Source: a phage
Sequence record: PX393109.1
Length of the DNA: 64,000 nt
Direction: 5' to 3' (one strand)
Part shown: piece after piece, positions 56,005 through 56,632 of the stretch
Position numbering within the stretch: position 1 is the stretch's first letter
Layout: each line of letters begins with the position of its first letter
Notes under the pieces: model-generated
What the model was told of the DNA's origin: nothing
The model's database searches: none
Seen by the model: only the letters and a program-made list of their open reading frames with translations
Made by a program: the position numbers and the translations under genes

Positions 56005-56069
56005 GTACGCTCCATACACTACGGTCCGTCGTAGATGCCAGATTATTCGGATATGACTTAAGCTAAGTC

Positions 56070-56490
56070 CCGAAGCGGTCTGGGAGGAGTGACATTAAGA
56101 AGGTAGTTTGGGTATTTACCCTAATCGGCGCTTCCTGGTTGAGCAGAGATGAATGCATAGTCTCACCGATCGGCCTATCTTCGAATACGGACATAAATCC
56201 TAATGTAGCTTATTGGCGCGGAGTGCCTAGTCCCTGGCTTCGCCAATGTTAGGTTGGATATGACTGGTAGCGGATGCTTACTAGCCATCTCCAGGGGACT
56301 TAGTGTAGCTATCGCCTGCGTATCGCGTAGCAGAACGAGGTAAAGCCCGAAGTGGCTTTAGAGAGTGATGCAGGGGTAGGCTCGGGTGGTCGCAGGCGCT
56401 CATCCGGTAGGATTGGTGAAGCGGAGGTCGCGCCGCCTCAAGCGGGCGCGACTCCTTCGCTCTCTACTTTGACTAATTGGGATAAAGGTG
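56070..56490 (+). ncRNA. candidate large structured RNA element, copy B (paralogue of 2870-3270); 5' leader of glycosyltransferase gene
   Basis: ~620 bp ORF-free; shares TCTGGGA(A/G)GAG, TGCGT..CGCGTAG, TAAAGCCC(A/G)AAGTGGCTTTAG, AGGCTCGGGTGG, GATAA(A)GG with copy A at conserved spacing; compensatory GC hairpin (CGCGCCGC/GCGGGCGCG). Confidence 0.4.
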
Positions 56491-56632
56491 TTACTCCGCT
56501 CTTTCGCTAAGCCTCTGTACTCCTCGAGTACGCTTCCCTTAGCATAGGTAAGAGGTAACTAATAAGTATTTATTTACTAATTTACTCTATTAGGTCCCTA
56601 TCCAGTTTAAAATAAATAACATAGAGGTAACT

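Follow-up and report, generated by a model that had tools for sequence, protein, structure and literature searches.

The locus studied here, positions 56005-56632 of a 64,000-nt stretch of phage DNA (record PX393109.1; the whole stretch is called the window below), holds no ORF of note, and the question that it raises is what so long a tract is for, lying as it does between a tRNA gene and a predicted protein gene. It had been described from the letters alone as the 5' leader of a glycosyltransferase gene, and as either a cis-regulator or a stable RNA processed from the transcript. We ask which of these descriptions fits what we call element B, the larger, 5' part of the tract, and its relative elsewhere in the window, copy A.

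Genomic setting and the promoter-like motif

The close relatives of the window are the Escherichia phages vB_EcoM_IME392 (116 kb) and EP_H11 (111 kb), with a nucleotide identity of ca. 91-99%, and these were the sole two matches among 50,697 phage records. In the window, rightward genes occupy 1-11 kb and 52.5-64 kb, with a leftward structural block in between. IME392 was included in a survey of 5-hydroxymethyl-dUMP synthesis genes because its DNA polymerase resembles that of YerA41, and the same survey placed it among the relatives of phages with hypermodified thymidine (PMC12686479). The window also encodes dUTPase-like and dCTP-deaminase-like proteins (8025-9404). A gene for an RNA polymerase beta' subunit is annotated in EP_H11 (contig L068, 29676-31244), and the phage may be transcribed by a multisubunit enzyme of its own.

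Element B is found in a 2-kb island of the rightward early arm that has several copies of the promoter motif, two tRNAs and few ORFs, and just downstream of it comes a block of replication genes (helicase at 58999, DnaB-like protein at 60649). The upstream tRNA set varies, with Arg and Met in the window and IME392, Gly, Arg and Met in EP_H11, and only Met in the Logan contigs L010 and L011, and element B, which follows the tRNAs, is constant (L001, L002, L010 and L011 compared with window 55100-55840). From the end of tRNA-Met (55838) to 56005 there are 167 nt, in agreement with the ca. 170 nt given before. The spacer between tRNA-Arg and tRNA-Met holds (at 55650-55718) a 13-bp hairpin, CCCCATTAT(CA)CATG / CATGATAATGGGG, for which neither ARAGORN nor Rfam called a tRNA. 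Another ORF-poor stretch lies at 54590-55060, with a promoter motif at 54735-54775 whose upstream half is the same variant as that of the motif before B (CTCTTTTGATGAnTCG...TAAATTG), followed at ca. 54798-54830 by a terminator-like hairpin and T run. This succession makes a short RNA possible there; the fold z-score of 54772-55060 was not significant.

Several observations suggest that the motif preceding element B (Table 1) is a promoter. Its invariant part, AAAGGCTGTTAA, has 13 exact copies in the window, all of them on the + strand, against 0.26 expected, and the remaining EP_H11 sequence (1-50 kb) adds 12 more on the + strand plus one match with one mismatch on the - strand. We treated the motif as a promoter because its other copies have a start codon ca. 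25-35 nt downstream wherever a gene follows, and because it resembles an extended -10 element (TGTTAAAnT) together with a conserved upstream box; the predicted start would be at ca. 56005-56009. That the element begins right behind such a motif, as the sequence-only reading had it, is thus borne out, B beginning ca. 5 nt later at what is probably a transcription start. Two smaller items of that reading, a perfect hairpin and a partial motif copy in the 3' part, were likewise located (Table 1, tail). Element B is non-coding, since 56005-56470 has at least five stops in each of the six frames on both strands and copies A and B differ by a 2-nt indel within their best-conserved part; a coding potential was accordingly rejected, with no ORF remnant found.

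Table 1. Positions of element B, copy A and neighbouring features in the window; pi is the diversity among 8 genomes
Feature	Position	Strand	Description	pi
tRNA-Arg	55541-55617	+	ARAGORN and Rfam
tRNA-Met	55763-55838	+	ARAGORN and Rfam; directly upstream of element B
Promoter-like motif	55967-56004	+	38 nt, just upstream of element B
Motif, upstream box	55969-55978		CGCTCTTTTG
Motif, invariant part	55987-55998		AAAGGCTGTTAA
Motif, -10-like part			TGTTAAATT
B-specific 5' domain	56005-56300	+	Several predicted hairpins	0.017 (56005-56200); 0.031 (56201-56300)
Possible long-range helix in 5' domain	56015-56027 with 56296-56307
3' module common to A and B	56299-56470	+	Proposed: four hairpins and a G-rich strand	0.073 (shared core)
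H2	56317-56321/56325-56329	+	5 bp, 3-nt loop
H_GA	56330-56371	+	Long hairpin, two purine-rich internal loops (GA/GA and GAG/RGA); top is the invariant UAAAGCC-CRAAGU-GGCUUUA
G-rich strand	56372-56389	+	CAGGGGnAGGCUCGGGUGG; joins H_GA to H3
H3	56380-56387/56402-56408	+	Closes the hypervariable loop
14-nt stretch	56390-56403			0.44
Terminal hairpin	56415-56461	+	Long, GC-rich; ca. 19 pairs in three tiers, bulged G, ca. -30 kcal/mol	0.038
Tail	56462-56632	+	Poorly conserved; includes an AT-rich stretch	0.080
Tail, orphan half motif	56497-56506		CGCTCTTTCG
Tail, two-tier hairpin	56507-56543		Around GTACTC-CTC-GAGTAC (56517-56531)
Direct repeat	56551-56561 and 56623-56633		AGAGGTAACTA; second copy is the ribosome-binding site and start of the 56633 ORF
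263-aa ORF	56633-57424	+	Called GT32-like in the sequence-only reading	0.014 (codon positions 1+2); 0.113 (codon position 3)
Copy A	2814-3342	+	530-nt non-coding gap in early operon, between 56-aa and 77-aa ORFs
Copy A, shared module	3099-3261
Copy A, terminal hairpin	3220-3253

Paralogous copies, RNA structure and selection

Copy A lacks its own promoter motif and is not near tRNAs, and its layout is the same in 10 contigs. The significant BLAST homology between the two copies is confined to 88 nt (3100-3186 in A, 56305-56389 in B; 78% identity, E 6e-15), after which a GC-rich hairpin follows at equal distance in both. A covariance model trained exclusively on B orthologs (R2, 173 positions) recovers 163 nt of copy A (3099-3261, E 4e-16), which puts the shared unit at ca. 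170 nt. The regions 56005-56300 and 56471-56632 found no counterpart in copy A when A and B were compared by BLAST, and each genome yields exactly two matches to a model of the 94-nt core. A and B are paralogues, 53 kb apart, with a common 3' module, and the earlier description of B as a second copy is right for the ca. 170 nt of this module (56299-56470 against 3099-3261) and wrong for the 5' 300 nt and the tail.

Copy A also shows variation of its own. In contig L081 it carries a replaced block of ca. 95 nt (1264-1357, equivalent to window 3107-3200), in which the flanks of H_GA are B-like (GCAGAGCGAGG...GAGCGATGC) and the sequence of H2 is different; the sequence indicates that A exchanged this block with B or with a diverged lineage. 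The loop of the terminal hairpin (window 3235-3239) is inverted in EP_H11, from CTGCC to GGCAG, with the stem untouched, and reads GGCGG in L088 and CCGCC in IME392, that is, flips of the palindrome loop at the DNA level. In the long 5' hairpin of the IME392 copy, the predicted U-G pair 2851/2892 has changed on both sides to C-A, a wobble-isosteric but non-standard pair.

The case for an RNA structure comes from how the variable positions behave. In the RNAalifold consensus of the B orthologs 99.6% of the pair cells are standard, and the variable stem positions are nearly all G-C, G-U or A-U; one pair of the helix 56213-56221/56240-56248 appears in all three forms in three haplotypes. As the G-U intermediates pair only on the + strand, these stem changes fit an RNA of that strand, and the folding energy is lower on the + than on the - strand in both copies, with a fold z-score of -3.9 for copy A and a weak -1.5 for B alone. 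The module was tested on nine distinct sequences (four B types, four A types and the recombinant A of L081), in an alignment that was fitted to the covariance model and leans towards it, and with few lineages (two paralogues, ca. 4-5 haplotypes): 93.3% of the cells were paired against 86.0% in shuffles (0/500), ten pairs had changed on both sides (1/500 shuffles) and the covariation score was 0.198 against 0.085 (0/500). Control structures slid by 1-3 columns had 33-44% of their cells paired. One of the changes, A-U to G-C at 56335/56366, has an independent origin in the L010 type. Several variants came as recombination blocks (L010; copy A of L081), so there were fewer events than changed cells; exchange between the copies could help to keep the core alike. 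Some predicted pairs are broken by ortholog changes (56165, 56023, 3198). The stem of the terminal hairpin is kept in A, in B and in a diverged lineage (L073) despite different sequences, while its loop varies and inverts freely.

On this comparative evidence we propose a shared module of four hairpins and a G-rich strand, and a structured RNA read on the + strand from the probable promoter is supported. Some other candidates were discarded: RNAalifold paired the H2 region to the G-rich box, which the L010-type changes break, and a local helix of copy A (3173-3184/3191-3203) is broken by G3198C in two orthologs; a repeated TGGGACT motif was not enriched, and CsrA-type GGA triplets showed no excess over a rough, hand-counted expectation.

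Diversity was calculated for the window and seven other B loci, which amount to six distinct sequences and were taken from GenBank, ENA and contigs of Logan. The 5' domain (0.017) is held as tightly, non-coding as it is, as the amino-acid-determining positions of the next ORF (0.014, with 0.113 at third positions), and this block was the most conserved part of the locus in three pairwise comparisons. Conservation stops at ca. 56470, the tail being about as variable as silent sites, and the hypervariable 14 nt (56390-56403) coincide exactly with a predicted loop. By these sequence comparisons element B is under purifying selection. It could be objected that there is no RNA function at all, and that the conservation stems from recent recombination, from protein-binding sites in the DNA or from a decayed gene or mobile module. 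These genomes are indeed mosaic, some coding windows also reach 97-99%, blocks have been replaced inside the element and the double change at 2851/2892 does not give a Watson-Crick pair. We nevertheless regard this as very unlikely, because diversity is low in all the pairwise comparisons and not in one, the changes in stems preserve pairing non-randomly, the hypervariable stretch falls exactly in a predicted loop, and neither an ORF remnant nor any similarity to proteins, host sequences or mobile elements was found.

The downstream ORF and the proposed end of the RNA

In this genome no promoter other than the motif before element B can be recognised upstream of the 56633 ORF, so the message of this ORF would carry the element as a leader if the polymerase passes the terminal hairpin. 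The ORF has nine homologs, all of them close and forming one 90% cluster. That it encodes a GT32-like glycosyltransferase, as had been proposed, could not be confirmed: the Pfam match to Caps_synth (PF05704) is sub-threshold (E 0.12, 12.2 bits against a cut-off of 24.5), PHROG and PDB gave no match, and a single-sequence AlphaFold (AF2) model had a pLDDT of 35 and was unusable. A D-x-D-like YVDAD is visible in the translation.

More can be learnt from the Logan contig L073, which represents a lineage with a helicase 79% identical to that of the window and begins inside the terminal hairpin. Its hairpin has the same CUCAA loop and the same bulged G as that of B, and the upper and lower stems differ in sequence yet pair, the changes being compensatory. 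Some 135 nt after the hairpin comes the promoter motif that in the window follows the 56633 ORF (L073 178-225, corresponding to window 57426-57473), with no gene between; the tail is related to that of the window, without the ORF. This lineage thus keeps the 3' end of the RNA and the tail in the absence of the ORF, which argues for an RNA gene and not for a dedicated glycosyltransferase leader, and the ORF behaves as an optional cassette. Its ribosome-binding site repeats an 11-mer (AGAGGTAACTA) found 72 nt upstream, a pattern to be expected where an inserted cassette begins, and the 77-aa ORF downstream of copy A is unrelated to it.

These observations bear on the possibility of a cis-acting leader or attenuator, in which the folded RNA and its terminal hairpin would set the transcription or translation of the next ORF by means of alternative pairings or a bound factor. 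Neither of the ORFs after A and B has a promoter motif of its own, and there are sequences that could take part in such a switch: UCCCU boxes (2982-2986, 56231-56235, 56595-56599) that can pair with either of two AGGGG boxes, a segment of copy A (2977-2986) that is 90% complementary to the ribosome-binding region 3330-3339, and two mutually exclusive pairings around AUCC 56402-56405, read from the sequences by eye. However, besides the L073 arrangement and the unrelated ORFs of the two copies, the strongest constraint is remote from the ORF, in the first 300 nt, with the ORF-adjacent tail as free as silent sites, and a length of 450 nt far exceeds known leaders, no cis-regulatory family of Rfam being matched. 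We consider a cis-acting leader unlikely. What stands of the original proposal is the probable promoter and the + strand RNA; for the reasons given (L073, the free tail, the unrelated ORF of copy A) the glycosyltransferase does not appear to be the purpose of the element, and a stable RNA fits better than a cis-regulator of that gene. The annotation would be corrected in this sense: the "leader" is probably an independent gene, with the glycosyltransferase-like ORF as an added cassette.

A scan for intrinsic terminators found none at 56415-56470 (B) or 3220-3262 (A), and the sequence after the terminal stem (CUCUCUACUUU in B, UCCAAUUGG in A) has no U tract, so the hairpin is not a standard intrinsic terminator. 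Substrates of RNase III have at least ca. 20 bp of mostly continuous double-stranded RNA, and the hairpin has ca. 19 pairs, in three tiers with bulges, at ca. -30 kcal/mol in A, B and L073. We propose that it is the 3' end of the RNA, a pause site or a processing site. In T7, RNase III cuts the early transcript, and long irregular hairpins lie between the genes of a polycistronic transcript. The likeness is that of a long irregular hairpin in a polycistronic early transcript, with cleavage here predicted at most, and the difference is that the present hairpin ends a conserved non-coding RNA of 400 nt, whereas those of T7 sit between coding regions. Cleavage that left a protective 3' stem on the upstream RNA would explain the location of copy A inside an operon.

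Element B is, then, real, under selection and structured, an RNA element whose family is new and narrowly distributed. The reading that we favour, tentatively, is that it encodes a structured non-coding RNA of ca. 455 nt (ca. 56005-56461), as a gene with its own promoter, and that this RNA acts in trans once released; its transcription, 3' end, processing, stability and action in trans are what we infer from the sequences. Transcription would start at the motif, and the ca. 455-nt RNA would fold into a lineage-specific 5' domain and the 3' module with its four hairpins and G-rich single strand. The long GC-rich terminal hairpin would mark the 3' end and may stop or pause part of the polymerases, or it may instead be cut by a double-strand-specific nuclease, as by RNase III in T7, leaving the protective stem. 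Polymerases that pass the hairpin would continue into the message of the downstream gene (the glycosyltransferase-like cassette in B, the 77-aa ORF in A), and such read-through would account for copy A inside its operon and for the promoterless ORFs after both copies. Given these ORFs and the lack of a U tract, polymerases would often have to read through, something that would fit a leader as well. Once released, the RNA would most likely be a scaffold for a protein of the host or phage, or a decoy for it, with the purine-rich loops, invariant in sequence, and the G-rich strand as likely contact surfaces; that stems and loops of the shared module are invariant in sequence indicates a specific partner.

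The invariant stems, in suggesting a specific partner, also speak for a processive antitermination element, that is, a nascent RNA that binds the polymerase and makes it resistant to terminators, like HK022 putL/putR or lambda nut. As in putL/putR and nutL/nutR, there are two related sense-oriented elements per genome in early units, and one of them, B, comes right after a promoter. The orphan box of the tail, CGCTCTTTCG, presumably resembles the boxA of lambda nut sites and rrn operons; compared with a nut site (a boxA similar to CGCUCUUUA plus a boxB hairpin), there is CGCUCUUUC at 56497-56505 and, 11 nt later, a 6-bp hairpin with a 3-nt loop. The 10-mer of the box also forms the upstream half of the promoter motif (eight matches in the window, seven of them within full motifs, against 0.15 expected). 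Copy A, however, does not have it, and in IME392 and L073 it has decayed. Moreover, each short group of genes has its own promoter motif and terminators are few, which leaves little need for antitermination, copy A is located late in its operon and not after a promoter, and the phage group has a polymerase subunit gene of its own, so that Nus-type mechanisms of the host may not apply. Compared by description only, the element (450 nt) is at least six-fold larger than put (ca. 70 nt) or nut (ca. 30 nt). HK022 put consists of two adjacent stem-loops directly after the promoter; H2 and H_GA are adjacent too, but 310 nt from the predicted start. We hold antitermination to be very unlikely.

A further alternative is suggested by the position of B just upstream of the replication block. 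It could be a transcription-primed origin of replication, of the kind known from ColE1 RNA II, T4 and T7, in which a structured G-rich transcript would leave a persistent RNA-DNA hybrid as primer, the two copies being two origins. The order of promoter, ca. 450 nt of RNA, G-rich box and AT-rich tail would suit this, as would the distance of ca. 53 kb between the copies on a genome of 111-116 kb. We rate it as the least likely of all the alternatives, since copy A lacks its own promoter, the G-rich box does vary, and the cumulative GC skew changes direction where the genes switch strand and not at the elements.

Distribution and relation to known phage RNAs

At the gathering score, Rfam 15 (cmscan) found only tRNAs in the whole window. 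With E values up to 10, the regions 55600-56700 and 2700-3450 gave tRNAs and chance-level matches only, the best of the non-tRNA ones being far under threshold (20.5 bits against 50, and 14.1 against 37), and the models of GOLLD (RF01998) and ROOL (RF03087) matched neither the B nor the A region. The element is therefore not GOLLD, ROOL, a known riboswitch, ribozyme or intron, or a housekeeping RNA. Exact and degenerate patterns of the core gave no matches, or three chance matches inside coding sequence, in IMG/VR, 56 in JGI metagenomes, all by chance and none with the upstream context, and a single one in GTDB genomes (an Actinomycetota MAG) that was unmatched by model R1. Nothing was found by blastn against E. 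coli genomes. The glycosyltransferase-like ORF and the helicase had no relatives in IMG/VR, and a protein search with the eight flanking small proteins joined as one query had no matches.

More diverged lineages were found in Logan, with helicases 79% and 52% identical and with reads in SRR31170557, SRR10902858 and SRR15882663; their contigs begin at the helicase or shortly upstream of it (L008, L009) or within the terminal hairpin (L073), and of the element they contain at most the part from that hairpin onwards. A distant relative, the Acinetobacter phage Ab1-TPeters, has the same genome layout; the models did not match it, and from the strand switch to the helicase it has no non-coding gap of this kind. 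The only carriers found belong to a rare clade of E. coli myoviruses (IME392, EP_H11). It is conceivable, although we regard it as doubtful, that the two paralogues with their common four-hairpin 3' module represent a previously undescribed class of large structured phage RNAs, early, restricted to rare E. coli myoviruses and with a target in trans, some machine of the host or of the phage; they might, for instance, be decoys against a defence directed at RNAs or tRNAs, or modulate polymerase or ribosome.

Among phage non-coding RNAs encoded together with tRNA genes, the tRNA cluster of T4 provides the stable RNAs C and D, ca. 120-140 nt long and of unknown function, which are processed from a common precursor with the tRNAs. 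Element B resembles them in this association; they are far shorter, and B appears to have its own promoter.

To our knowledge, GOLLD and ROOL have been known for more than a decade without an assigned function, in part because their hosts are hard to work with. Both are large ornate RNAs of phages and prophages, located near tRNA islands, and in GOLLD the 3' region is conserved and the 5' region variable, with one member located after tRNA-Met (PMC12286853). Like them, our element is encoded by a phage, hundreds of nucleotides long and multi-hairpin, and B, not copy A, lies beside tRNA genes; with GOLLD in particular the element shares the conserved 3' and variable 5' parts, and B the position after tRNA-Met. 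It differs in its length (ca. 455 nt against their ca. 580-800), in its restriction to one small clade of E. coli phages and in having two paralogues per genome. Self-complementary stretches (CCGG, CCGAUCGG, CCAAUUGG) are present, and prove nothing about RNA-only oligomers or cages. The setting and size class are thus similar to those of GOLLD and ROOL, and the two paralogues define a minimal shared module. If this class of RNA is what we suppose, it would belong to the small number of large orphan RNAs from phages whose function genetics could dissect, the host being E. coli: as IME392 and EP_H11 plate on this species, deletion, compensatory mutagenesis, pull-downs and structural work are all feasible.
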